DNA of 64,000 nt, from the NCBI GenBank assembly GCA_963666055.2, contig CAXWPH010000015.1, positions 992,001 to 1,056,000 of the forward strand. Reading direction: 5' to 3'. Below, in pieces: positions 19,254-33,090 of the stretch. The translations under genes and the position numbers were made by a program. This DNA is from Acidobacteriota bacterium (GTDB taxonomy: Bacteria; Acidobacteriota; UBA890; WLXD01). The notes under the pieces were generated by a model, which was not told where the DNA came from, made no database searches, and saw nothing but the letters and a program-made list of their open reading frames with translations. Within the stretch, counting starts at the first letter, position 1. The number at the start of each line of letters is the position of its first letter.

Positions 19254-20039
19254 ATGGCTACCCTCTCGCTCGTTGTCATCACGCGCAACGAGGAAGACAA
19301 TCTCGCCGAATGCCTCGACTCGGCTGCATGGTGCGACGAGATCGTCGTCGTCGACGACGAATCGACCGATGCGACCCGTGAAATCGCCCGTCGCCATACC
19401 GACAAGGTCTACCGAAGGAAACTGGACCGCTTCGGGCGCCAGAAGCAGTTCGCCATCGAGCAGGCGACCTGCGATTGGATCCTCGTCCTGGACGCCGACG
19501 AGAGGCTCACGGACGAGCTGGCCGACGGTATCCGCGAGGTCGTCGCGGCTGACGAAACCCGTTTCGATGGCTATCGGCTGCGACGGCTAACGTGGCTGTT
19601 CGGTGAGCCCGTGAGCTTCTCTGGGTGGTACAAATGCGTCCACCTGCGTCTGTTTCGTCGCGGCTGCGCCCGGTACGTCGATCGGCGGGTGCACGAATAC
19701 CCGGTGCTGATAAACGATGGACCGCTGGGCACACTACCAGGCCATCTGGACCATCACACATACGCAGATCTCGATGAGCTGGAATCGAAGCGCCAACGCT
19801 ACTCGAGCCTCGCGGCGGCAGACTGGTATGACACCGGTCGTCGCGTCAACTGGCTGAACGCCATCTGGTGGATGGGCGTCGTGCCGGCGGCCGCCTTCCT
19901 GCGTGAGTTGCTCGTCCAGGGCGGCTGGCGCGGCGGGCGTACCGGCCTGCGGATCGCGAAAATGGCGATGCTGTCGGACTACCAAACGATACGGAAACTC
20001 TGGAAGCTCAGTCGCGCGGCACGGGTCGCCGACTCCTAG
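19254..20039 (+). CDS. Glycosyltransferase family 2 (LPS beta-1,4-glucosyltransferase-like)
   Basis: ITRNEE, VVDDESTDAT, DWILVLDADE, LRLFRR, VHE motifs. Confidence 0.9.
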   Translation: MATLSLVVITRNEEDNLAECLDSAAWCDEIVVVDDESTDATREIARRHTDKVYRRKLDRFGRQKQFAIEQATCDWILVLDADERLTDELADGIREVVAADETRFDGYRLRRLTWLFGEPVSFSGWYKCVHLRLFRRGCARYVDRRVHEYPVLINDGPLGTLPGHLDHHTYADLDELESKRQRYSSLAAADWYDTGRRVNWLNAIWWMGVVPAAAFLRELLVQGGWRGGRTGLRIAKMAMLSDYQTIRKLWKLSRAARVADS

Positions 20040-20847
20040 GCCCGTTCGGCTGGTCGTTGAGCGTCCAGTCGTAGCCCATGATCTTCACGCGTAACGTGTC
20101 GCGATGCTCGCGGATATACGCCGCGTCGGCGTCGGGGGCGTATCGGAGCACGTAGTCGACCACGTCTTCCGCGACCATCTCGAAGTCGCCTTCGTACCAG
20201 TCGAAGTACTTCGTCAGGTACAACGTGCCCGAATCGCGGTCGAGTTGCAGTGCCCGCGGCTGTCGCAGGAACTCGTACGACTGTTGCCCGAGCCTCTCGT
20301 CGAGATTCTCGGCTCGATACGGTTCGTTCAGCAGCCGAGGACAGCCGAACGCAGCGCAGACCAGCGCCCAGTGAATGCGCTCGTCGTCGAATTTCGCGCG
20401 AAGCGTATCGTGCTCGATGTTGTCGGCGCTCATGTCGCGGCCGGCCACCGGATACTTCTGCTTGAAGAAGCCGCCGATCAGTCCCCATAGGGCCCCGACA
20501 TCGCGCACGCTCTCGAGCGGGTAACGTTCCACGACGCCCCAGATCACCACGGCGTTGTAGGCGTTGATCCAGAACGCCATACGCTCCGTGTCGCTGGTGA
20601 ACGAGGTTGGGTCGACGGCGGCGATCGCTGTCATGAACGCCTCGAGATCGGCGAACCCGGCGGCCTTCAGTCCGGCATAGTTCACCAGCCCCTCATCGTC
20701 GACATAGCCGGCGAGCACCCGCGCCCACGGCGCGTACAGATCGTCGTCGGACGCTAGCGCCCCGGCGGCCGCCAACTCGCCCACACCGATACCGCTACCG
20801 CCAGTGGCGATGACGACGAGTGCGGCAATTGCGACGAAACGGTGCAT
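20008..20847 (-). CDS. DUF547 domain secreted protein
   Basis: GLVNY, AFWINAYNA, IEH..LR, RIHWALVCAAFGCPRL, FDWYEGDF, YDWTLN. Confidence 0.9.
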   Translation of the reverse strand: MHRFVAIAALVVIATGGSGIGVGELAAAGALASDDDLYAPWARVLAGYVDDEGLVNYAGLKAAGFADLEAFMTAIAAVDPTSFTSDTERMAFWINAYNAVVIWGVVERYPLESVRDVGALWGLIGGFFKQKYPVAGRDMSADNIEHDTLRAKFDDERIHWALVCAAFGCPRLLNEPYRAENLDERLGQQSYEFLRQPRALQLDRDSGTLYLTKYFDWYEGDFEMVAEDVVDYVLRYAPDADAAYIREHRDTLRVKIMGYDWTLNDQPNGPRSRRPVPRD

Positions 20848-21213: not shown

Positions 21214-24200
21214 TTATCTCCCGGCGTCGAGAGCCGCGAAGTGTAACAGCGTGTTGAGTACCAATCCGTACTGCCCGTGGGTTTGATTACGCCACATCGG
21301 GTTGATGGCAAACAAGACCGCATGGCCGTCGCCCACCGGGACGTCGATGATCGCCGGTCGCGACGCCAGCGCGCCCGCGTCGCCGAGCAATCCCGAGATC
21401 AGCAGCTCGCTGCTGGAATCGTGGAAGCGCATCACCACACGGGGAACTTGATCGGGCGCCGGAACCAGATGGCCCGCCAGCAGGCGCATGCGATCGCTGA
21501 GATCCTGGCCGTCGTCGAAGTAGAGCTCCTCGTCGGCATCTTCATCATCCGCCTCGCCTTCCGACTCGTCCGCCTCGCCCTCCGACTCATCCGCCTCGCC
21601 CTCCGACTCATCCGCCTCGCCTTCCGGATCGTCCGCCTCACCTTCCGGGTCTACGTATGGCGGATGACCTGGAACCACGTCCTCGCCCCGCCGGCCGGAG
21701 GCGCGCTCGGTTTCGTCGCTCCCGCCCCCGCCGAAGCTGCGGGGCGCAGCGTCCACACGCAGCAACGGGGCGTTGCTGAAGTACACCGCCATGTCCTCAT
21801 CGTAACCGTAGGCGATGGGGCTGAGCTCGGCGGTGATCCTGGCGCTGAACAGGGCGCCGCGAGCCTTCATATCGGAGGGGGTGTCATCTATCCGCACGTA
21901 GGGCGCGATGCCGGTCTGGGTCAGGAAACCGATGGAGCTGGTGGCCGCAATGATGATGCCGCCGTGCTCGACGAAGCGCTGGATCTTGGCCACGCCATCG
22001 AATCCGATGCCCGCGGTCATGTCGTCGGTGGAGTCGATGTGACCCAAATTGGGAGTGACCTCGGTGCGTTTCCAGGCGATCGGCTGATTGCTGCGGGCGC
22101 CTTGTACGATGCGGGTAACGTCACCCCAACCGGGAGCCATGATGAGCACATCCCAGCGCTCGTTCAGATTGTCGGTTTCGCCGATCGCGTCGGTCGAGAT
22201 GTACTCATAAGGAACGCCGGCGTCGTCGAGTGCATAGCGCCACCAGCCTTCGCTCTGAGTGTTGATCCAGGTGTGGACCAGGCCGATCCGCGGTACTGGC
22301 ATGTCGTGCGCGGCGACCTCCGGAGTCGAGGAGATGGCGTTCAGCCATAGGCCGAGCTCGGTCGCCGCCCCGACCGCCCGCCGCCGCACTTCCGGGTCGC
22401 CGCCGTCGATTAGCATGCTGCCGGCCGGGTAGGTCGTGTCGCCGATGGTGAACTCGTCCTCGGCGGCGCGCATCTGCAGGTCGGCAAGCGCGAAGCGGAA
22501 GCTCGCCACCTCCGGTTCGCCGGTCGCCGCAAGCACCAGGGTGGATCCATCGCCGGAGATTCCCCCGTCCGGGGCGGTGGCATCGAGCGCCATCATGCTG
22601 ACATCGAGCACCGCGGTGTCCTTGACGCGGTAGGTGTCGACGTTGAACAGCGGGCCGAGCGACCAGCCGGTGTCGTCATAGGGTCGGGGGTCGCTGGGGT
22701 TGTAGTACTGGTAGTCGAGCAGCATGTCGGCGAGCCGGCTGTAGGGTTGATCCATGCGCACGATGATGTCGCCGGCGGCGAACTGCACCGTCTCGCTGTC
22801 GTCGGGCTGGCGCGAGGCTTCGATCTCGAACGCCTCCGAGGCGACGTGGAGCTCGATGGTCTGCGCTTGCAGCAGATCGACAAGACGCCGTGTGAGCCGC
22901 GGGCGCGGCCCGTCGGCGGGAATCAACCAGGCGGCGGGGCCCTCGCGCTGCGGCTTTTCGATCGCCCGCTTGCCCTTCCGATAGAACGTCTCCAGAAAGC
23001 GATCCTTGTTCGTCGCCACGTTGTGAAGGCCGACGACGAGCGCGCTTTGCATCAAGTTGGTGTTGTTGCGCAGCGACCACAGTACCTTCGGGGTGGGTGG
23101 GTTCATGCGGTACCAGGCGCGCTGCGACTGGCTGCCGATCTCGCGCATCTGGGTTTCCGGAACGCTGTTGCCGAACGTCTCGTAGAAGCGACCCACCGAG
23201 TTCCGCCCCATCGCCGCGTAGATCATGTAGTTGGCGGCCCAGCCATCGAAGAAGTTGAACGTCCAGACACCCGGTACGTTCCACTCGTTCATCTTCCGCA
23301 CCTCGGTCCACGCCATCTCCACCCACTCCTCGGTGGTAATGGGGTCGAGCCAGGAGTTGAACGGGCCGTGGCCACTCATGATGTACAGAAATGGTACCGA
23401 CTCGTGCAGGTCGTGCATCACCTGCGGGTGCCACTGCAGGTACGTTTCGATGGCCTGCCGGGAGAGGGTCAGCGCCAGCCCGATGCCGTCGCGGTTATTG
23501 TCGTGGGCGACGTACTTGCCCCAGTAGACGAGGTTCGGTGCGGCCTTGCCTGGGTTGGCGGCGCGATAGCGCATGATGTCGATCATGCGCTCGCGACCGT
23601 CCACCTCGACCACCGGGGTGGCCATGAAGATCAAATTGTCGCGAATCTCGTCGAAGATGGGTCGCTCGTCTACCGCGAAGCGATAGATCAGCTCCATGAG
23701 CATCTCCGGTGAGCCGGTCTCCGGCGAGTGAAGCCCGCCGGTTGCCCAGTAGATCGCCTTGCCGTGGCCGATCAACTGGGTCGCCTCTTCGTCGGTCAGG
23801 TGGCGGGGATCGGCGAGGCGAGCAGTGATCTCGCGATAACGATCGAGGTTGGCCATCGACTCGTCGCTTCCGGCGACTACGAGAATGCGCTCGCGGTTCT
23901 CCTCGGTCTCTCCCATGCGAAAGACCTGCACGCGCGGCGATGCATCGGCGACGGCCCGCATGTACGAGTGCACGTCGGCGGCGTAGGTGAGGTGTCCCTC
24001 GGCTCCGGCGATGTAGCCGTGGAAGTCGAGCGGTGTGGGGACGGTGCTCGAGGCTGGCAGCACTTCGACGATGGGCGTGAGGAACTTCTCGTCGGTGGTG
24101 TGGGCACGAATCTCGGCCCCGTAGCGTGCGTCGAGCTGCTGGCCATCCTGTGCCATCGCCGGGGCGACGACGGCAATGACCAGCGTGAGGATCGCGACTC

Positions 24201-24237
24201 GTGGTCGCCGGCGGCTACCGATCATTTCGTGGTCCAC
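21214..24237 (-). CDS. M14 zinc carboxypeptidase-family secreted protein
   Basis: Signal peptide; LHSPETGSPE, HDNNRD and HDLHES zinc-binding motifs. Confidence 0.88.
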   Translation of the reverse strand: MDHEMIGSRRRPRVAILTLVIAVVAPAMAQDGQQLDARYGAEIRAHTTDEKFLTPIVEVLPASSTVPTPLDFHGYIAGAEGHLTYAADVHSYMRAVADASPRVQVFRMGETEENRERILVVAGSDESMANLDRYREITARLADPRHLTDEEATQLIGHGKAIYWATGGLHSPETGSPEMLMELIYRFAVDERPIFDEIRDNLIFMATPVVEVDGRERMIDIMRYRAANPGKAAPNLVYWGKYVAHDNNRDGIGLALTLSRQAIETYLQWHPQVMHDLHESVPFLYIMSGHGPFNSWLDPITTEEWVEMAWTEVRKMNEWNVPGVWTFNFFDGWAANYMIYAAMGRNSVGRFYETFGNSVPETQMREIGSQSQRAWYRMNPPTPKVLWSLRNNTNLMQSALVVGLHNVATNKDRFLETFYRKGKRAIEKPQREGPAAWLIPADGPRPRLTRRLVDLLQAQTIELHVASEAFEIEASRQPDDSETVQFAAGDIIVRMDQPYSRLADMLLDYQYYNPSDPRPYDDTGWSLGPLFNVDTYRVKDTAVLDVSMMALDATAPDGGISGDGSTLVLAATGEPEVASFRFALADLQMRAAEDEFTIGDTTYPAGSMLIDGGDPEVRRRAVGAATELGLWLNAISSTPEVAAHDMPVPRIGLVHTWINTQSEGWWRYALDDAGVPYEYISTDAIGETDNLNERWDVLIMAPGWGDVTRIVQGARSNQPIAWKRTEVTPNLGHIDSTDDMTAGIGFDGVAKIQRFVEHGGIIIAATSSIGFLTQTGIAPYVRIDDTPSDMKARGALFSARITAELSPIAYGYDEDMAVYFSNAPLLRVDAAPRSFGGGGSDETERASGRRGEDVVPGHPPYVDPEGEADDPEGEADESEGEADESEGEADESEGEADDEDADEELYFDDGQDLSDRMRLLAGHLVPAPDQVPRVVMRFHDSSSELLISGLLGDAGALASRPAIIDVPVGDGHAVLFAINPMWRNQTHGQYGLVLNTLLHFAALDAGR
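21548..21647. repeat. 21-bp tandem repeat (~5 units) encoding acidic (EGEADES)n
   Basis: Unit TCCGCCTCGCCYTCCGACTCR starting at 21548, 21569, 21590, 21611 and, partially, 21632. Confidence 0.92.
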
Positions 24238-24375: not shown

Positions 24376-24450
24376 TGGTTGGGGCGCAGGGACTCGAACC
24401 CCGATTCTACGGTCCAGAGCCGTATGTCTTGCCAATTGGACGACGCCCCA
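24376..24450 (-). tRNA. tRNA-Gln (anticodon CTG)
   Basis: TGGGGCG acceptor stem, anticodon arm TACGG-CTCTGGA-CCGTA, GGTTCGAGTCC T-arm, encoded CCA; 75 nt. Confidence 0.96.
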
Positions 24451-24726: not shown

Positions 24727-27048
24727 CTAGGCGTCGAGAGGCTCGTCGGCGTCGGCGAGGGCCCCCTCGCCGTTGGCGCCGTTGCTTATGTCGCGATGCC
24801 AGACGAGCAAGCCGGGCAGCAACACCACAGCTGTCAACCAGGTGCACAGCAACCCGACGACCGCCAGCAGGCCGATCGAGCGCAACCCGGGATGATGTGC
24901 GAAAGCCATCCCGGCGTATCCCATGATTGTCGTCAACGTTGCCACGGTGATCGGCTCGAAGAGCTCCAGTTGAGTTGCGGCCGTATCGCCGTCGAGCTCT
25001 CGCCAGCGCCGGTAGTAGTGCACTCCGTGATCCACTCCGAGACCGAGCAGCGTTGGCAGCACCACCATATTGAAGAAGTTCACCCGCCATCCGAGAGCGA
25101 TCACGGCGCCGAAGGTCAACAGCAGGCTCGCTACCAGCGGTACTAGCACCCAGGCCGCCTGGTTCACGTCACGACGGTCGATGACCACCAGGATGAAGAC
25201 GCCAAGGAACGTAAGGACAACGATGAGTGGCCCCTCGCGCGTGACTAGCCAGAGGATCTCCGCCAACACCGGCTTATCGCCCGTCGGACCAAGGATGCCG
25301 GCGGGCAGCTCCAGGTCGTAGAGCTCGCGCGTGAAACGCATTGTTATGACGCCGTCCTTGCCCGGACCGGTGGCGTGCAGTCCCAGGATGTAGGCGCCGG
25401 AGCCGTCCAGCGTGACCATGTCCTGCAGCACCGACTCCGGCAGGTCCTCGACCTGCGGCAGGTTCTCCGGCATCTCGAAGCCGAGCACATCCTCGATGAC
25501 ACGGATGCGCTCCGGGTCCTCGACGCGACGTACCCATCGCCGAGCGAGCATCTCCTGGATCAGTGCCAAGGAGTCGCGCCGCAACTGCACCTCAGCCTCA
25601 TCGGGGGCGAAGTCACGCACGCTCGCGACTCGCCCGATCACCGATCCCGGCTCCGCTGCGGTACTGGCGATCAGCGCCAGCATCTCGTCGAGCGCCTCGA
25701 GGTCCTCGGCGACGTAGATCGCCGAGGGCCCGAAGAAGATCGGGTACACTTCCTCCTGTTTCTCGCGGATCGCGTCGAGCTCCTCTAGGTTGGCGCTGAA
25801 GTTGGCAAAGTCGTAGTCGAACTCGAGCAGGAACGCCGAGGCATAGGCCGAGACAATTACCAGCGTGCTCAGCAGAGCGGCCGACCAGCTCGGAGGGATT
25901 GCCAGTCGAGCACTCGGATAGCGCGGCGCGCTCGGCGTAACCAGGCCGAGTCGATGGCCGGCGCTCAACGTTGCCGGCATCACCAACAGCATGCACGCGG
26001 TCACCACCAGGATGGCCGTACCGCCAATCAGCCCGAAGTCGGAGAAGCCTCGGAAGCCCGATACCGCCAGGATGAACAGCCCGAACGACGTCGTAAGCCC
26101 CGAGGTGAAGACCGAGCGCCCGGTAGAGGTGAAGGTCTCGGCGAGCGCGACCTCCGGTGGCTGGCTGAGGATCTCGTGTCGGAAGCGTTTCACCAGGTGA
26201 ATGGAATAGTCGACCCCCATGCCAAACAGCACCATCAGCAGGAACGAGGTGATGGTGTTGAGATCGCCGACCAGATCGGGCACGAAGGCGAACGCCCATA
26301 TCAAGCCGGCCGCGATCGGATACAGCAGCACCGGAAGCACGCGCACCGACCGGAAGCTGATCGCCAGCGTCAACAGAATAGCCGCCGCCGCTACCGCGCC
26401 AGTCCGGGTGACGTCGGAGACGATGACGTCGAATTCCTCCACCCGCGTGCGCAGCGAGCCGCCGATGGAGACGACCACCCCAGCGGCGCCCGCCTCCTCG
26501 CTGGCGATGCTATCGATGCGCTGGTAGAGGTCTCGCAACCCGGTCAGGTCGGTCAGACCTTCGCTGGTCCTCAGGATCACTCCGTACATCGTGTCGTCGG
26601 CGTCGCGGTGGTACTCGGGTAGCTCGCTGTACAGCCGCACGATGCGCTCGAGATCAGATTCCTCCTCGCTTGCCGAATCGTCGAGATCGTCGAGGAACGG
26701 GTTTACCTCCGCTTCCCAGTCCTCGATCGTCTCGATAGCTGTCTCGAGCTGATCGGAAGGCACGAGACCGTAGCGGTAGCGCTCGACGAATTCGGTCGGG
26801 TAGCGGTGGTTGATATCGGTGATCTCCTCGAGCAATTGCAATCGCGCCACCGTGTGATCGACTGCCCTCTTGAGCGATTCGGGGTCGCCGTGCTCGAAGA
26901 TGAGGCTGAAGTACCCGCCGTCGCCGACCAGTGGCTCCAAGTCGCGACTCCATTGCACCGCCGGGCTGTCCTGTGGCAGCAGCCGCGTCAGGTCGGAGTC
27001 GAGGCCGAGAGTGCGCGCCCGCATGAACGCCGGGACAGTGAGCAGCAC
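24727..27048 (-). CDS. MMPL/RND family lipid transporter (HpnN-like); true start uncertain
   Basis: Two TM repeats with GMGVDYSIH and GLGVDHGVH motifs; LDSDLTRLLP after TM1. Confidence 0.88.
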   Translation of the reverse strand: MLLTVPAFMRARTLGLDSDLTRLLPQDSPAVQWSRDLEPLVGDGGYFSLIFEHGDPESLKRAVDHTVARLQLLEEITDINHRYPTEFVERYRYGLVPSDQLETAIETIEDWEAEVNPFLDDLDDSASEEESDLERIVRLYSELPEYHRDADDTMYGVILRTSEGLTDLTGLRDLYQRIDSIASEEAGAAGVVVSIGGSLRTRVEEFDVIVSDVTRTGAVAAAAILLTLAISFRSVRVLPVLLYPIAAGLIWAFAFVPDLVGDLNTITSFLLMVLFGMGVDYSIHLVKRFRHEILSQPPEVALAETFTSTGRSVFTSGLTTSFGLFILAVSGFRGFSDFGLIGGTAILVVTACMLLVMPATLSAGHRLGLVTPSAPRYPSARLAIPPSWSAALLSTLVIVSAYASAFLLEFDYDFANFSANLEELDAIREKQEEVYPIFFGPSAIYVAEDLEALDEMLALIASTAAEPGSVIGRVASVRDFAPDEAEVQLRRDSLALIQEMLARRWVRRVEDPERIRVIEDVLGFEMPENLPQVEDLPESVLQDMVTLDGSGAYILGLHATGPGKDGVITMRFTRELYDLELPAGILGPTGDKPVLAEILWLVTREGPLIVVLTFLGVFILVVIDRRDVNQAAWVLVPLVASLLLTFGAVIALGWRVNFFNMVVLPTLLGLGVDHGVHYYRRWRELDGDTAATQLELFEPITVATLTTIMGYAGMAFAHHPGLRSIGLLAVVGLLCTWLTAVVLLPGLLVWHRDISNGANGEGALADADEPLDA

Positions 27049-27467
27049 GGTGAGCCCGATCCACAGGAACGCGAACCGATGCGACCAACGGCAGACCGCG
27101 CTGATCCCCCGGTAGAAGATCGTGCGCTCGCGAGCGGTGCGACGCTGGAGTTTGCAGCTTGTCGGTCACGGGCGGATGGGTTGGGCGGGCTTGTCGTACG
27201 ACCAGCCGACAGCGCAAGCGGCAGACAGGCCATGCCCGCTAACGGTCGTGACGGGCGTCGATCGCGCCGGAAACGCGCGGCTCACCTTTCAAGGCTCTAG
27301 GAAGGGTTCGCAGGCGTCAAGCCCAGGCTTGTGCGACGGCGCTAGGCGCACCCGAGGTGGCATGCTGGCGAAGCTGCCGAACTCTGCCACTGCGCGGCGC
27401 GATGCTACGCTTAAGCTGCCGTCCCGAACGTAAACTGACCCTCCAGCCAGATCCGTTAGGAGACCCC

Positions 27468-28892
27468 ATGCGCGCCGAGCCCCATGGGCGCCAGCTGTCC
27501 CCGGCCGCCAGCCTGTTGTTAGTCACCGCCCTGCTGGTGGCGGCGAGCGCCAGCGGACAGGAGCCGCAGCCAGCCGCGCGTACCACTGTGCGTCTCGGTC
27601 TCGCTGCCGTGCTGGCGCGGGTGGTCGACTCCAACCCACTGATGCGGGCTCACCGACTGGATGTGGCTCGCGCCGAAGTTGACCTCGACCAGTGGCAGAG
27701 CTTCTGGTCGTTGCCGGAGTTACAGCTGGACAGCTACTCGGGTGTGGTTCCCGGTGCGCGCGGCGACATCTTCAATTCCCCCGACACATCCAGCGACCTG
27801 AACGATCTCGGCCCGTTCTTCAGAGGCCAGATCGGGTTTGCCATTCCGGTGTACGGATTCGGGCGGCTTCGACATGGCACGGCGGCGGCGCGTGGCGTGG
27901 TGGAGGCCAAGGCATCGGAGAGTCAGCGGGCCCGCGACGAGTTGTCGAGGGAGGTCATCCGCACCTATTGGGGGGCGCTGTCGGCCGGCCGCGCCTTCGG
28001 TATCGCGGAGGATATGCGCAGTTCCTACGACGAGCTCCTCGAGCAGGCCGAGGAAAAGCTCGATACAGGCGATATCGACCCCAACGATGCCTGGGAGATC
28101 CGCGCTGGCAAGTACGACGTCGACGCGGTCTACCTGGAGGCGCGTCAGACCGAGCGGCTACTGCGCAATGCGCTTGCCAAGCTGATGGGCTTTGACAGCG
28201 GCAATGCCTATGAGCTCCGGGACGACGGGATGCCGGCGGTGGCTCTTGCCCGCGCCGCCCTGCCTGCCCTGCAGGCGGTGGCCATTGAGCGTAATCCGCA
28301 GCTCCGCGCCCTTGCCGCTATCGCCGGTGCGCTCGACGAGGCCATGGGGCTGAGCCGGAGCAATCGCTGGCCGCTCATCCTGATCGGTGGCGGGTTCGGC
28401 TACGCGCGCTCGTCGGCGCGCGACGATCAGAAAAACCCGTTTGCCTACGACGAGTTCAACTTCACACGCGTCGGAGCTGCGCTGAATGTGCGCTGGGACC
28501 TCAACTTTGCCCGCCACAGCCTGGATATCGCCCGTCGGAGAATCGAGCGTGACGCCACCCTGGCTCGCCGGCAGGCGTTGCAAATGAGTGTCGAGCTTGA
28601 CGTTGCGCGTGCCCTCGAAGCCGTGCTGAAGAACGTTGATTTGCAGGATGCGGCCCGCCAGACGCGCCGGGAAACACGTCGCTGGCTACGGTCTGCGGGC
28701 GACGACTTCGACCTAGGGATCGGTGAGGCGCAGCCCCTCATCAAGGCCTACCGTGCCGACTATCGTTTACAGCAGGAAGTCGTTAAGAGAGAATATGAGT
28801 TGATGGTCTCCTTGGCCGAGTTGGCCTTTGTTATCGGAGACCTTTCTTCATACCTACAGTGGATTGCTGATGGCCAAGTCGTCCTCGACTAG
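27468..28892 (+). CDS. TolC-family outer-membrane protein
   Basis: AGGAG RBS, signal peptide, duplicated OEP repeat (DSNPLMRA / ERNPQLRA) with long helices. Confidence 0.82.
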   Translation: MRAEPHGRQLSPAASLLLVTALLVAASASGQEPQPAARTTVRLGLAAVLARVVDSNPLMRAHRLDVARAEVDLDQWQSFWSLPELQLDSYSGVVPGARGDIFNSPDTSSDLNDLGPFFRGQIGFAIPVYGFGRLRHGTAAARGVVEAKASESQRARDELSREVIRTYWGALSAGRAFGIAEDMRSSYDELLEQAEEKLDTGDIDPNDAWEIRAGKYDVDAVYLEARQTERLLRNALAKLMGFDSGNAYELRDDGMPAVALARAALPALQAVAIERNPQLRALAAIAGALDEAMGLSRSNRWPLILIGGGFGYARSSARDDQKNPFAYDEFNFTRVGAALNVRWDLNFARHSLDIARRRIERDATLARRQALQMSVELDVARALEAVLKNVDLQDAARQTRRETRRWLRSAGDDFDLGIGEAQPLIKAYRADYRLQQEVVKREYELMVSLAELAFVIGDLSSYLQWIADGQVVLD

Positions 28893-29484
28893 CCTCGTGA
28901 CGTCGGTGCTCTTTCTGGGCGTGATAGCGGTTGGCCAGGCCGCGGAAAATATCACCACCCCGATGGAGACGGTCCGCGCGTCGAACGAGGCGATTTCCGC
29001 CATTCTCGCGGAGCATGACCCTCTCGATGCCGAGGGGGAGGCACGTGTCTACCAGGTCATGAACGACGTCACCGACTTCGCAACGATGTCGACCGGCGCG
29101 ATCGATGAGATCTGTGTGGAGCACGAGCTGACCGACGAGAAGTGCGGTGAGTGGAAGACCGTCTTCGGTGATTTGCTACGCATTCGTTCCATAAAGGGGG
29201 TGGGCCGCTACCGAGCGGACCGCTTCGACTACCTGAACGAGGAGATCGACGGCGAGCAAGCGGTGGTCAACACCCTGGCCTACTTCGAGGGCGACGACAT
29301 TGCCCTCGACTACGAGCTCATGCTACGCGACGACCGGTGGCTGATCGTCAACTACGTCGTCGACGACGTTGACACCGCTCGTAGTTGGAGCCGCCGCTTT
29401 ATCCGCCTGCTGAGGACCGAAACCGTCGACGATGTTATTCGGCGGCTGCGGGACCGGATCGAGGAGTTCCACACGGACTCCTGA
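28870..29484 (+). CDS. MlaC/Ttg2D/HpnM-like periplasmic lipid-binding protein
   Basis: Signal peptide; TDFATMS, ALDYEL...WLIVNYVVDDV, F..LL....DDVIRRLR match the MlaC pattern. Confidence 0.8.
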   Translation: MAKSSSTSLVTSVLFLGVIAVGQAAENITTPMETVRASNEAISAILAEHDPLDAEGEARVYQVMNDVTDFATMSTGAIDEICVEHELTDEKCGEWKTVFGDLLRIRSIKGVGRYRADRFDYLNEEIDGEQAVVNTLAYFEGDDIALDYELMLRDDRWLIVNYVVDDVDTARSWSRRFIRLLRTETVDDVIRRLRDRIEEFHTDS

Positions 29485-29600
29485 TTCCGCGTACGCGGCA
29501 CCCGGACGTCGTCAACCAGGCCAGGATCTGAAGGCGTGCCCGGCGCGAAGCGTGTTTTGCGCCCGGCTGTCGACGCTCTTCTCGAGCGAGCGAGACCGAA

Positions 29601-30833
29601 ATGGCTCAAGCCGAAATCACCACCATGAAGGTGGACATCTTCGACAAGACGAACTCCAAGTACTACGCGCGCGCCAACGAGCTGCGCGAGATGGGGCTCT
29701 TCCCGTACTTCAAGGCGCTTCGGGCCCAGAATGGCAACGAAGTTACGGTCGATGGCAAGCAGATGATCATGGTCTGCTCCAACGACTACCTTGGCCTTAG
29801 CCAGGACGAGCGCGTGCAGAGCGCCGGCTTGCCGGCGCTGCGCGAGTTCGGAACGAGCTGCACGGGCTCACGCTTTCTCAACGGCACGCTGGGCATCCAC
29901 GAGTACCTAGAGCGCGACCTGGCGGAGTTCCTGAAAAAGGAGTCGGTGCTGACATTCAGCACCGGGTTCCTGGGCTCGCTCGGCGTTCTGGCCGCCGTCG
30001 TCGGCCGTCGCGACATCATGTACTTCGACCGCGAGAACCACGCCAGCCTGTATGACGGAGCGCGGCTCTCCTACGGTCAGCTGCGCAAGTACCGTCACGG
30101 CGACATGGATCATCTGGAGTCGCTGCTGAAGCGCGATGCCAATCGCGATGCCGGAAAGCTCATCGTCACGGACGGTGTGTTCTCGATGAGCGGCGAGATC
30201 GCCGATCTGCCTGGCGTCGTCGCGTCGGCTCGCCGCTACGGTGCTCGAGTTCTCGTCGACGATGCGCACTCGACCGGTGTCCTGGGTCCTAATGGTCGGG
30301 GCACGGCGAACCACTTCGGCCTCGAGGACGAGGTCGACCTGGTCATCGGCACTTTCTCGAAAGCGTTCGCTTCGGTGGGCGGCTTCGTCGGCGGCAACGC
30401 CCAGATCGTTGACTACATCAAGTGCCTGGCGCGGCCGTTCGTATTCACCGCAGCTTTGCCTCCGGCGCAAGTGGCGACCACCCACAAGGCACTGGAGATT
30501 CTGGCCAGCGAGCCGGAGCATCGCGAGCGGCTGTGGAAGCGCGTCATGATGTTCCGCAAGGGTCTGCGCGGGCTGGGGTTCAACACCCTGGGCTCCGAAG
30601 GTCCGATCGTGCCCGTGTCGATCGGCGATGTCGATCTGGCCATGGCCATGTGGAAGGACGTCTGGGACGCTGGGATCTTCGCCTTGCCGGCGTTGCCGCC
30701 TGCTGTTCCTGAGGGCGAGGCGCTCATCCGAATGGCGGTCAACGCTAGCCACAAGCGCGAGGAGATCGAGCGCGTGCTGAGCGCTTTCGCCGACGCCGGT
30801 CGCCGGCACGGCGTGATCAGTACGGCTGCCTAG
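29601..30833 (+). CDS. spt: Serine palmitoyltransferase (alpha-oxoamine synthase family)
   Basis: SNDYLGL, GSRFLNGT, NHAS, DGVFSM, DDAH, GTFSK; adjacent to a bCerS-like gene. Confidence 0.8.
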   Translation: MAQAEITTMKVDIFDKTNSKYYARANELREMGLFPYFKALRAQNGNEVTVDGKQMIMVCSNDYLGLSQDERVQSAGLPALREFGTSCTGSRFLNGTLGIHEYLERDLAEFLKKESVLTFSTGFLGSLGVLAAVVGRRDIMYFDRENHASLYDGARLSYGQLRKYRHGDMDHLESLLKRDANRDAGKLIVTDGVFSMSGEIADLPGVVASARRYGARVLVDDAHSTGVLGPNGRGTANHFGLEDEVDLVIGTFSKAFASVGGFVGGNAQIVDYIKCLARPFVFTAALPPAQVATTHKALEILASEPEHRERLWKRVMMFRKGLRGLGFNTLGSEGPIVPVSIGDVDLAMAMWKDVWDAGIFALPALPPAVPEGEALIRMAVNASHKREEIERVLSAFADAGRRHGVISTAA

Positions 30834-30893
30834 CAACTCGCCGTAACCAGGCCCGCCACACTTCCACCACGGCCTGATAGGCTCGACCTACGC

Positions 30894-32033
30894 ATGACCG
30901 AGGCCGTTTGCGTACCCGGGGTATCGATTCGTCGGGCGACGAGCAAGCGTGAGCTCGACGCCTTCATCAAGCTGCCGTTCCGGCTGTACGCCGACGACCC
31001 CAACTGGGTTGCGCCGCTGATCCTCGCCGAGCGGGCGCTGCTCGATACCGCCAAGAACCCGTTCTTCCAGCACGCCGAGATCGAGCTTTACCTGGCCAGG
31101 CGGGGCGGCAAGCTGGTGGGCCGGATCGCCGCCATCGACGACGACCGGCACAACGAGACGCATGGCGACAACCTGGGCTTCTTCGGCTTCTTCGAGGCCG
31201 AAGACGCCGAGGTGGCCGGCGCACTCCTAGAGGCTGCCGAGGAGTGGGCTCGAGTGCGCGGTCGCGATGCTCTGCGCGGTCCCGCCAACCCTTCGTTGAA
31301 CGATACGGCGGGCATGCTCGTCGGACCCTTCGATCTCGATCCGCTCATTCAGACGACCCACAACCCGGCGACCTATCCAGGTTGGGTGGAGGCGGCGGGC
31401 TACGAGAAAGCGAAGGATCTTTGGACCTGGTGGTTCGATATGGACACCAGCGTCAACCGGCGCGCCCAGCGGATCCTGCGGCGCATCGAGACGCGCCTCG
31501 ACCCCAAGCCGACGATCCGCCAGTTGAGCAAGCGGAATTTCGAGCAGGACGCGCTGACCATACTGCGGATCTTCTCCGACGCCTGGGCCAACAACTGGGG
31601 CTTCGTGGCGCCCACCGAGGAGGAGTTTCTGCATACCGCCAAGGACATGAAGATGATCCTCAACTTCGAGCTGGCGCTCATCATGGAGGTCGAGGGTGAG
31701 CCGATCGCGTTTTGCCTCACGGTTCCCGACATGAACCAGGTATTCAAGCGCATGCGCGGCCGCCTGTTCCCGTTCGGTTTCTTGCACCTGCTGCGCAAGG
31801 GCAGCATCATCGACCGATGCCGGCTCATGCTTCTGGGAGTGGTGGCCGAGCATCGTCAAAAGGGCCTCGAGCTCGCCCTGATCGCGCACTCGATCCGCGT
31901 CGTCGAGAGGCTTGGCTGGGTCGGCGGGGAGTGCGGGTGGACCCTGGAAGACAACGACGGCATCAACAAGGCGATCCGGCTGGTCGGCGGCCAGCATTCC
32001 AAGACCTACCGGATCTACGAAAAGCGATTGTAG
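30894..32033 (+). CDS. GNAT protein resembling bacterial ceramide synthase (bCerS/YghO-like)
   Basis: FIKLP..LYADDPNWVAP, GRIAA, GFFGFFE, HNP.TY, NWGFV, WTLEDN; 379 aa, directly after spt. Confidence 0.78.
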   Translation: MTEAVCVPGVSIRRATSKRELDAFIKLPFRLYADDPNWVAPLILAERALLDTAKNPFFQHAEIELYLARRGGKLVGRIAAIDDDRHNETHGDNLGFFGFFEAEDAEVAGALLEAAEEWARVRGRDALRGPANPSLNDTAGMLVGPFDLDPLIQTTHNPATYPGWVEAAGYEKAKDLWTWWFDMDTSVNRRAQRILRRIETRLDPKPTIRQLSKRNFEQDALTILRIFSDAWANNWGFVAPTEEEFLHTAKDMKMILNFELALIMEVEGEPIAFCLTVPDMNQVFKRMRGRLFPFGFLHLLRKGSIIDRCRLMLLGVVAEHRQKGLELALIAHSIRVVERLGWVGGECGWTLEDNDGINKAIRLVGGQHSKTYRIYEKRL

Positions 32034-32106
32034 TGTCGGCCGGTCACCTGCTTGCTGTTGCGTTTGATCCTGGGCGGCGCTCCTGCCGCACCCGTCGAGG
32101 AATCTG

Positions 32107-33090
32107 ATGCCTGCCAACGTCGCTGTCATAACCGGCGGCACTGGGTTCATCGGCTGGAACCTAGGTGAGAGCCTGCGCGATTCGGGTTGGGAAGTGCGCG
32201 CCGTGGTGCGCCCATCGAGCCCCAACGCCCTTCCGGATCGGGTGCAGCGAATCGATTGCGAGCTCGACGAGGTCGCCATGTCCGGCGCTTGTGAAGGCGC
32301 CGCGATTGTCTACCACCTCGCCGGGTTGACGCGCGCCATCGACTACGAGTCGTTCGCACGGGTCAACATCGAGGGCGCCCGCCAGGCGGCGCTAGCAGCG
32401 CGGCGCGCCGAGGCTTTCTTCGTGCTCGTGTCCAGTCAGGCCGGCGCCGGCGCAGGCACCCCCGAGCACCCGCGCACTGAGAAACACCAGCCCGCGCCGC
32501 TGAGCTCGTACGGAAAGAGCAAGCTCGCCGGCGAGCGTGCGGTACAGAAGATCGAGGGCTTGCGATACGCGATCATCCGACCGCCGGGCGTTTATGGCCC
32601 TCGCGACCGTGACTTCCTCGCTCTGTTCCGCGGCGGCAAGCGCGGCCTGTGTCCAGTGCTCGGCGATGCGGAGAGCGCCTACACGCTGATCCACGTGGCC
32701 GACCTCGTCGCGGGTCTGCGGGCGGTAGGCGAGACCGGGGCCGCCGAGATCGACGCCGTCATGGGCGAGACTTTCTTCGTCGGCCACGCGGAGCCGGTGC
32801 GGCAAGTCGACTTCGCCAGGTTGCTCTCGGAGGCCTACGACCGTCGTGTGCGGGTGGTTCCGGTGCCACGGTGGCTGTTGTACGTCATCGCCGAGGCCGG
32901 TGAGCTCAGTGGCCGACTCACCGGACGGCCGGCGCTGCTGAACCGCGATCGCCTGCGCGAGCTCGGTGCTCCCGGGCTCGTCTGCGAGGTGGCGAAGATC
33001 GAGCGCGCCGTGGGTCACGTGGCGCGAATCGACGCGGCCCAAGGGTTCGAGGACACAGCGGACTGGTATCGGCAGCACGGCTGGCTTTGA
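32107..33090 (+). CDS. Extended SDR (NAD-dependent epimerase family); candidate ceramide/3-ketosphinganine reductase
   Basis: ITGGTGFIG, HLAG, YGKSK (YxxxK), RPPGVYGPRD. Specific role inferred from context only. Confidence 0.75.
   Translation: MPANVAVITGGTGFIGWNLGESLRDSGWEVRAVVRPSSPNALPDRVQRIDCELDEVAMSGACEGAAIVYHLAGLTRAIDYESFARVNIEGARQAALAARRAEAFFVLVSSQAGAGAGTPEHPRTEKHQPAPLSSYGKSKLAGERAVQKIEGLRYAIIRPPGVYGPRDRDFLALFRGGKRGLCPVLGDAESAYTLIHVADLVAGLRAVGETGAAEIDAVMGETFFVGHAEPVRQVDFARLLSEAYDRRVRVVPVPRWLLYVIAEAGELSGRLTGRPALLNRDRLRELGAPGLVCEVAKIERAVGHVARIDAAQGFEDTADWYRQHGWL

Follow-up and report, generated by a model that had tools for sequence, protein, structure and literature searches.

A candidate adaptor-less lipid transport module of MMPL, MlaC-like and TolC-like proteins beside ceramide-type synthesis genes in an Acidobacteriota bacterium

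The window analyzed here is a stretch of 64,000 nucleotides from an Acidobacteriota bacterium (assembly GCA_963666055.2, contig CAXWPH010000015.1, positions 992,001 to 1,056,000), in which six neighboring genes bring together lipid synthesis and lipid transport. Three of them code for a serine palmitoyltransferase (Spt)-like enzyme, an N-acyltransferase resembling bCerS and a candidate ceramide reductase; the other three, called the trio below, code for an MMPL-type pump, a MlaC-like periplasmic carrier and an atypical TolC-family protein labeled TolC-x. On balance we favor the reading that the enzymes make dihydroceramide and that the trio forms an adaptor-less export route for it to the outer membrane. 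Across bacteria, the trio is best understood as a portable module for lipid transport, without an adaptor, that various lipid-synthesis loci have taken up. A wider proposal, which we find finely balanced and hold tentatively, is that a member of the TolC family has taken on the role of outer-membrane acceptor for a soluble MlaC shuttle, fed by either MMPL or ABC-2 motors. This would be an undescribed route over about ten phyla, placing sphingolipids in the outer membrane of Myxococcota and of the window's Acidobacteriota family.

Organization and Conservation of the Locus

The features of the locus are listed below in window positions.

24727..27169, minus strand: gene of an MMPL/HpnN-like RND transporter (813 aa without the extra base; PF03176 twice)
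27147..27150, no strand: extra base that takes the MMPL start out of its reading frame, from comparison with congeners and public runs
27403..27411, plus strand: extended -10-like motif TGCTACGCT upstream of tolC, seen by eye; putative promoter element
27468..28892, plus strand: gene of the atypical TolC/OEP-family outer-membrane protein, TolC-x (474 aa; PF02321 twice)
28870..29484, plus strand: gene of a MlaC/Ttg2D/HpnM-like periplasmic lipid carrier (204 aa; PF05494)
29601..30833, plus strand: gene of an Spt-like alpha-oxoamine synthase, AOS (410 aa)
30894..32033, plus strand: gene of a bCerS/YghO-like N-acyltransferase, GNAT (379 aa)
32107..33090, plus strand: gene of an extended SDR, candidate ceramide reductase, CerR-like (327 aa)

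These coordinates confirm the arrangement given in the original prediction, with co-oriented tolC, mlaC-like, spt, GNAT and SDR genes, a divergent MMPL gene and an overlap of tolC and mlaC, which amounts to 23 nt. The gaps between mlaC and AOS, AOS and GNAT, and GNAT and SDR are 116, 60 and 73 nt. Pfam identified MMPL (two stretches, 4.8e-29), OEP (two stretches, 6.8e-31) and MlaC (1.1e-13) in the trio, and Aminotran_1_2 in the AOS and Epimerase in the SDR; the GNAT match was weak and below cut-off. Two absences named earlier also hold, as neither a gene of the periplasmic adaptor (membrane fusion protein, MFP) nor one of an acyl carrier protein (ACP) is among the six, and an MFP profile was negative in 10 loci of the family. 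Lack of an ACP gene is expected, because Bacteroidetes-type Spt use acyl-CoA and the AcpR system has been described for Rhodobacteria (PMC11324152, PMC9386255).

Conservation of the neighborhood had been proposed as a check, and 10 of 10 genomes of the family have all six genes arranged as in the window, with identity down to 49-67%. This conservation is more than chance. Homologues of the window's TolC carry the NCBI label Acidobacteriota.

Enzymes of Ceramide-Type Synthesis

The AOS groups with Spt and not with Kbl/BioF, as the original prediction had supposed. In an IQ-TREE phylogeny of 40 rows, with references labeled by annotation or context and without CapA, HemA or cysteate acyltransferase rows, Spt-type proteins from E. 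coli BL21, Sphingomonas and Bacteroides share a 20-row clade (98/98) with it, and the Kbl/BioF set stands apart (100/99). The sister of the AOS there is a Rubrobacter plasmid protein. The best match in PDB is a solved serine palmitoyltransferase (364 bits), against 258 bits for cysteate acyltransferase, at most 262 for Kbl and 291 for Thermus-type AONS/KBL. Both the pyridoxal phosphate lysine motif GTFSKAFASVGG and the catalytic-histidine motif ENHASLYDG align with the solved Spt and with the Spt clade. The Spt proteins of two other loci, L182 (13674-15209) and L198 (15641-17194), are about 510-520 aa long and have a C-terminal extension of about 120 residues without Pfam match.

The GNAT matches YghO, encoded in the E. 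coli BL21 spt locus, over its full length (33% identity over 382 columns, E 1e-70; at database size 1e8, E 9.7e-65 with 98% coverage). We take YghO to be the bCerS of E. coli, from its place in the spt locus. With YghO as reference the GNAT lies within the limits used for bCerS homology (E <= 1e-30, coverage >= 50%; PMC11334938), in line with its earlier assignment. It is also 46% identical to the GNAT beside spt in L182; the structure search found no solved bCerS relative. Between the SDR and the epimerase/dehydratase encoded upstream of acp-spt in E. coli BL21 the identity is 31%, against 36% for Spt and 33% for bCerS/YghO, and the SDR matches those of other spt-bcerS cassettes with E-values of 2.6e-36 and 2.5e-34. 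It is a likely candidate for CerR, an assignment less strong than those of the other two enzymes.

The closest cassette in a plasmid collection lies on the Rubrobacter radiotolerans plasmid NZ_CP007515.1 (L222:8908-12275), where spt, bcerS and SDR genes, unannotated, stand in the same order and are 61, 49 and 34% identical to those of the window. An LTA-synthase-family gene follows it. No transport trio was found within 9 kb on either side in this single case, as expected for a cell without an outer membrane (monoderm). The monoderm R. radiotolerans probably produces ceramide.

Proteins of the Transport Trio

The TolC-x model (AlphaFold, pLDDT 85) matches TolC/OprM folds with TMq of about 0.65-0.75, and together with the OEP repeats this places the protein in the TolC/OEP family. 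It has a hydrophobic N-terminal segment and two conserved long loops between barrel strands. Over an alignment of 132 rows with a mean column identity of 26%, the loop residues R318, N323, P324, D328 and N331 are conserved in 84-90%. By analogy with TolC the loops would face outside, and they are obvious candidates for lipid release into the membrane. Profile scores separate TolC-x from ordinary TolC (over 270 against at most 223 bits), although the split had a FastTree support of only 0.58 in a 45-row tree.

The MlaC-like protein has the fold and the signal segment of MlaC/Ttg2D: its model (pLDDT 90) has lipid-bound Ttg2D/MlaC structures as top Foldseek matches, a hydrophobic segment spans residues 7-25, and PF05494 is over cut-off. 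The best NCBIfam model is HpnM, with a score far below cut-off. It is the only MlaC match in the window's genome. A complete Mla system (MlaA-MlaC-MlaFEDB) is not what we see here, since MlaA was not found in any of the five carrier genomes tested and the MlaD match of the window's genome, in an open frame of 500 residues, is unlinked at a distance of over 1 Mb. One partial library protein (P0184, one member) joins MMPL and OEP in a single open reading frame (ORF). This fusion may be an artefact, because another library protein joins PEPCK and OEP.

The third member of the trio needed correction. The presence of a divergent MMPL gene, as predicted, is confirmed by Pfam, but its ORF had been started at 27048, and the true start is the GTG at 27169. 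An ORF from 27048 misses the first transmembrane helix because of one extra base in the assembly near 27147-27150. This base is absent in four of four congeners and from the contigs of three of four public runs (X1, X2, X4; at most 3 samples from 2 studies), the fourth run giving no cover, and is probably an assembly slip. A crude hydropathy scan found 10 segments in the protein. It is an RND pump of the MMPL/HAE3 type by its two MMPL repeats with Asp in G.G.D motifs (GMGVDYSIH and GLGVDHGVH), and at least one such motif is present in 49 of 59 homologues. It resembles HpnN and HAE3 pumps but scores far below both cut-offs; among equivalog models the best, HpnN, gave 193 of 752 bits, and BstA 109 of 1400.

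Only a single LptF/G pair was found in the window's genome, which thus lacks the LptF2G2 of Caulobacter. Its LptF and LptG matches lie in one 801-residue frame (G000:C12:91279-93549), and in single frames in relatives too, as a fused LptFG.

The TolC-x/MlaC Pair in Other Bacteria

A GTDB scan for the TolC-x loop motif gave at least 109 stretches, 80 with flanks, and 68 TolC-x loci remained after 12 chance matches had been dropped. All figures on these loci hold among the matches listed, and their counts are not additive with others, as some loci come from genomes already examined. As control we used ordinary TolC genes, at 39 of 40 loci fetched from a phylum-wide TolC search (104 of 301 matches, mostly ordinary TolCs). 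With a MlaC profile trained on TolC-x loci, MlaC was detected at 62 of 68 TolC-x loci and at 0 of 39 control loci; with an MFP profile trained on 19 of the 39 control loci, MFP was detected at 39 of 39 controls and at one TolC-x locus, where it belongs to a separate efflux operon. MMPL was present at 50 of the 68 loci and both MlaC and MMPL at 48. Many ordinary TolC loci carry AcrB-type pumps together with the MFP. The trio thus lacks the composition of a tripartite RND pump, counting MFP at the loci only (0 of 10 in the family, 1 of 68 in the scan and 0 of 40 in the phylum of genome G331 described below).

The labels on these loci are Latescibacterota, Gemmatimonadota, Kapabacteria, Bacteriovorax relatives, Binatia, Desulfobacteraceae, Aminicenantes, Methylomirabilota, Planctomycetota and Nitrospirae. 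TolC-x had no match in the plasmid collection. At nine loci, mostly labeled Binatia (L077, L088, L108, L131, L137, L138, L142, L147 and L149), an ABC ATPase and an ABC-2 permease stand beside TolC-x/MlaC and MMPL is absent; a FabI-like SDR adjoins in five of them. Since the ABC exporter replaces MMPL there, the invariant pair is TolC-x/MlaC. Both partner motors, of the MMPL/HpnN and ABC-2 types, are of exporter families, which work outward.

Other lipid-synthesis genes are frequent neighbors of TolC-x, with NTP-transferase/CDP-alcohol phosphotransferase at 18 loci, LPG-synthase-TM at 14, GT4 at 10 and myo-inositol-phosphate synthase at 5. Inositol-lipid-type genes of the kind described in PMC9246714 share one operon with the trio in L080, L086, L105, L115, L133, L152 and L188. 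This set consists of an NTP-transferase fused to CDP-alcohol phosphotransferase, LPG-synthase-TM and myo-inositol-phosphate synthase, and in L188 the first three domains lie within one 808-aa protein. A DUF3047 protein is encoded between tolC-x and mlaC in L073 (10443-11717) and 17 further Latescibacterota-labeled loci; in L195 and L201 it adjoins tolC-x with no MlaC match. At 15 of 40 loci in the phylum of G331 (L186, L189, L190, L202 and 11 more), tolC-x/mlaC lies beside FHA-domain and secretion-ATPase (Tad-like) genes, not MMPL.

Association with Ceramide Genes

How closely is the trio tied to ceramide synthesis outside the window's family? Among 121 genomes of the phylum of G331, which has genomes of 9-10 Mb and is probably Myxococcota, TolC-x was found in 78, bCerS in 66, both in 62 and neither in 39. 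TolC-x is thus present in 62 of 66 genomes with bCerS against 16 of 55 without it (odds ratio 38, inflated by kinship). The two lie within 10 kb of each other in at least 17 genomes, out of 20 listed with both matches on one contig. Forty loci of this phylum, chosen for long contigs, had MlaC at 34, MMPL at 15, MFP at none and spt with bcerS at 8; the latter show at least three gene orders, unlike that of the window. The order in L182 (tolC, mlaC, SDR, bcerS, spt, mmpL) fits Myxococcus xanthus MXAN_3744 and MXAN_3746, as compared by published gene labels and not on the M. xanthus genome. MXAN_3748 we take to be spt. MXAN_3744 is listed as TolC (PMC10196010), and MXAN_3746 is an oxidoreductase whose insertion mutants are depleted in spores (bioRxiv 10.64898/2026.08.28.747804). 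In the TolC tree, spt-linked TolC-x proteins fall in three separate places, and the window's clade has eight members outside the family, six of which belong to genomes that gave Spt as well as bCerS matches. Because the trio sits with ceramide genes here and in many Myxococcota-like genomes, ceramide is its likeliest cargo.

Several observations weigh against this reading. Only 5 of the 68 TolC-x loci have spt or bcerS within 10 kb, all of them from the window's family. Fifty of 67 carrier genomes, of completeness not given, were tested at genome level; outside the family a bCerS match (E <= 1e-25) was present in 20 of 50, and bCerS together with an Spt-level score in 14 of 50. In the phylum of G333 (Bdellovibrionota-type), 14 genomes have both, 15 bCerS only, 20 TolC-x only and 12 neither (odds ratio 0.56), and the Acidobacteriota G030 and G032 have bCerS and no TolC-x match. 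G011, a 96% complete genome of the same order as the window, has the trio inside a glycosyltransferase cluster, and no bCerS was found in it. The best AOS of G011, G312, G337, G341 and G324 group with Kbl/BioF though TolC-x is present, and the trio of these genomes flanks glycosyltransferases or inositol-lipid genes. On the enzyme side, the window's AOS misses all NCBIfam Spt cut-offs (437 of 640 bits for the best, SerpalmtaseCFB, 381 of 500 and 317 of 670); the spt-linked proteins of L182 and L198 are likewise below the cut-off (507 and 479), and Kbl proteins score about 320. The SDR reaches E 2.8e-24 (database size 1e8) with the E. coli BL21 candidate, our sole CerR reference, and misses the limit of 1e-30 applied to CerR in PMC11334938. 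Finally, TolC-type barrels are not known to open sideways into the membrane.

Of what the original prediction expected, co-occurrence of the transport genes with spt elsewhere was therefore seen in a second phylum under other gene orders, with TolC-x in nearly every bCerS genome, and the phylum of G333 showed no association. A trio specific to sphingolipids has to be given up in view of the 5 of 68 loci and 20 of 50 genomes.

Possible Mechanism and Alternative Explanations

Under the export reading, Spt would condense serine with acyl-CoA, bCerS would N-acylate the product and the SDR would reduce it, as in Caulobacter. The proton-driven MMPL protein would then lift the lipid from the inner membrane, as HpnN does with hopanoids and BstA with sterols, and the MlaC-like protein would shield the two acyl chains on the way across the periplasm. 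The role of MlaA/VacJ in MlaC systems, docking site and acceptor in the outer membrane, would fall to the TolC-like trimer. In this reading the module is general-purpose for speciality lipids, other lineages having attached it to inositol-lipid or glycosyltransferase genes. From the exporter-type motors we infer that transport is outward.

The strongest competitor, to which we give a minor but serious share of probability, is that the trio is a general envelope-lipid transporter (of phospholipid, inositol lipid or glycolipid) standing beside ceramide genes for co-regulation, and that ceramide travels by the single Lpt machine, as proposed for Caulobacter. This would explain the trio without Spt/bCerS in G011, G312, G337 and G341, the inositol-lipid and glycosyltransferase neighbors at other TolC-x loci, the missing association in the phylum of G333 and the grouping of the window's TolC-x with copies linked to inositol-lipid or glycosyltransferase genes (FastTree 1.0); a 2026 preprint keeps the canonical Lpt route open (10.64898/2026.04.12.717747). 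It explains less well why spt-bcerS adjacency arises at three separate places of the TolC tree under several gene orders, why TolC-x is present in 62 of the 66 genomes with bCerS in the phylum of G331, and why Spt and bCerS matches occur together in the genomes behind six of the eight members that the window's clade has outside the family. It is improbable, in our view, that the trio moves lipid elsewhere, either secreting sphingoid lipids through the TolC lumen or removing or taking up lipid inward like E. coli MlaC. The model does have a normal TolC fold with a periplasmic tunnel, the characterized MlaC works inward (PMC10665443), and a MlaD gene exists elsewhere in the window's genome. However, that MlaD is unlinked and of the long 500-residue type, which works without MlaC according to PMC10665443, and MlaA was not found in any of five carrier genomes. 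Both partner motors, besides, are of exporter families.

Still harder to credit is that the enzymes make some related amino-lipid for export by the trio, either a sulfonolipid-like product or a deoxysphingoid built on alanine or glycine. The AOS score below the Spt cut-off (437 of 640) leaves room for it, as do the SDR, only 31% like the E. coli enzyme, and an AOS tree that contained no cysteate acyltransferase. Yet the AOS is placed inside the Spt group of Bacteroides, Sphingomonas and E. coli (98/98), scores 364 bits with solved Spt against 258 with cysteate acyltransferase, and is adjoined by a full-length bCerS homologue.

Two further ideas were rejected. Hopanoids are unlikely to be the cargo, as hopene cyclase was present in one of five genomes and not in that of the window; squalene-hopene cyclase was not found in G000 (the window's genome), G007 or G011. 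Nor does ceramide replace lipopolysaccharide in the window's family, because lipid A genes are kept: lpxC is present in six of six relatives and lpxB in the window's genome, where lpxC was not found, probably a gap in this 95.7% complete assembly. In G312, the 6.6 Mb genome of L073, which carries the trio, lpxC, lpxB and bCerS were all not found.

Comparison with Known Systems

The window shares homologues of Spt, bCerS/YghO and SDR with the Spt-bCerS-CerR pathway of Caulobacter crescentus and E. coli BL21 (PMC11324152, PMC11087976). It differs from that pathway in having no acpR/aasR in the cluster and no lptF2G2, in a Spt of the Bacteroidetes/delta type, and in bcerS directly following spt, whereas PMC11324152 places cerS always in another operon. 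The Caulobacter LptF2G2(C2)-LptB system (10.64898/2026.04.12.717747) likewise has transport genes in a sphingolipid locus, but it is an ABC/Lpt bridge, in contrast to the RND pump and soluble carrier of the window. In the same preprint, the MmpL encoded next to M. xanthus spt is hypothesized to be an alternative transporter of sphingolipids; the preprint's main text does not contain the words TolC, Mla or RND.

The HpnN-HpnM-HpnS hopanoid model (PMC12324291) also has an MMPL-type RND pump and a MlaC-like shuttle beside lipid-synthesis genes. Its outer-membrane partner is the MlaA lipoprotein, in place of which the window has a TolC-family protein, with neither MlaA nor hopene cyclase found. 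In Campylobacter jejuni Cj1371-1373 (bioRxiv 10.64898/2026.08.28.747810), MlaC is co-transcribed with an MmpL-like RND protein and outward transport is hypothesized, but with MlaA, no TolC and (lyso)phospholipid as proposed cargo. BstABC sterol transport (PMC11713862) similarly combines an MMPL pump, a periplasmic carrier and an outer-membrane component beside synthesis genes, but BstB belongs to the substrate-binding proteins and BstC is a lipoprotein of the TatT type, and neither resembles MlaC or TolC. Tripartite RND-MFP-TolC pumps have the TolC/OEP fold and an RND-superfamily pump in common with the window, which differs by the missing MFP, the adjacent MlaC and a pump of 813 aa and HpnN type, against 1030-1100 aa in the AcrB type.

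The route of sphingolipids to the outer membrane is called open in PMC11324152, PMC11087976 and 10.64898/2026.04.12.717747, and LptF2G2 in the last of these solves the inner-membrane step only, for Proteobacteria. Our literature search, with most subscription journals outside it, found nothing that describes TolC as a MlaC partner or the full trio with sphingolipids. This suggests that, with the ceramide pathway established and the MmpL-spt idea published, the TolC-MlaC part is what appears new. The cluster is a complete three-part transport candidate for lineages with a single Lpt set, and as the same gene set fits the M. xanthus gene order, genetics is feasible now. If TolC does work with a soluble lipid carrier in place of an adaptor, this textbook protein family would gain a new role.

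Upstream Regions and Flanking Genes

The TGCTACGCT block is conserved in five genomes upstream of tolC. A consensus promoter scan gave one site against 0.7 expected, nothing above chance, and this motif was not among its output. A block with TTGACG at 27250-27300, conserved in five congeners, lies upstream of the MMPL start on the minus strand and is a possible -35 element.

Directly downstream of the MMPL gene is tRNA-Gln(CTG) (24376-24450, minus strand). Positions 21214-24237 (minus strand) code for a protein of 1007 aa that resembles M14 zinc carboxypeptidases, contains an acidic repeat in tandem (EGEADES) and has at least seven paralogues in the genome. Also beyond the MMPL gene, a secreted DUF547 protein (20008-20847, minus strand) and a family-2 glycosyltransferase (19254-20039, plus strand) are encoded; within the fetched stretches they recur at 6 and 4 of the 10 family loci, respectively, which could reflect lipid modification or plain synteny.

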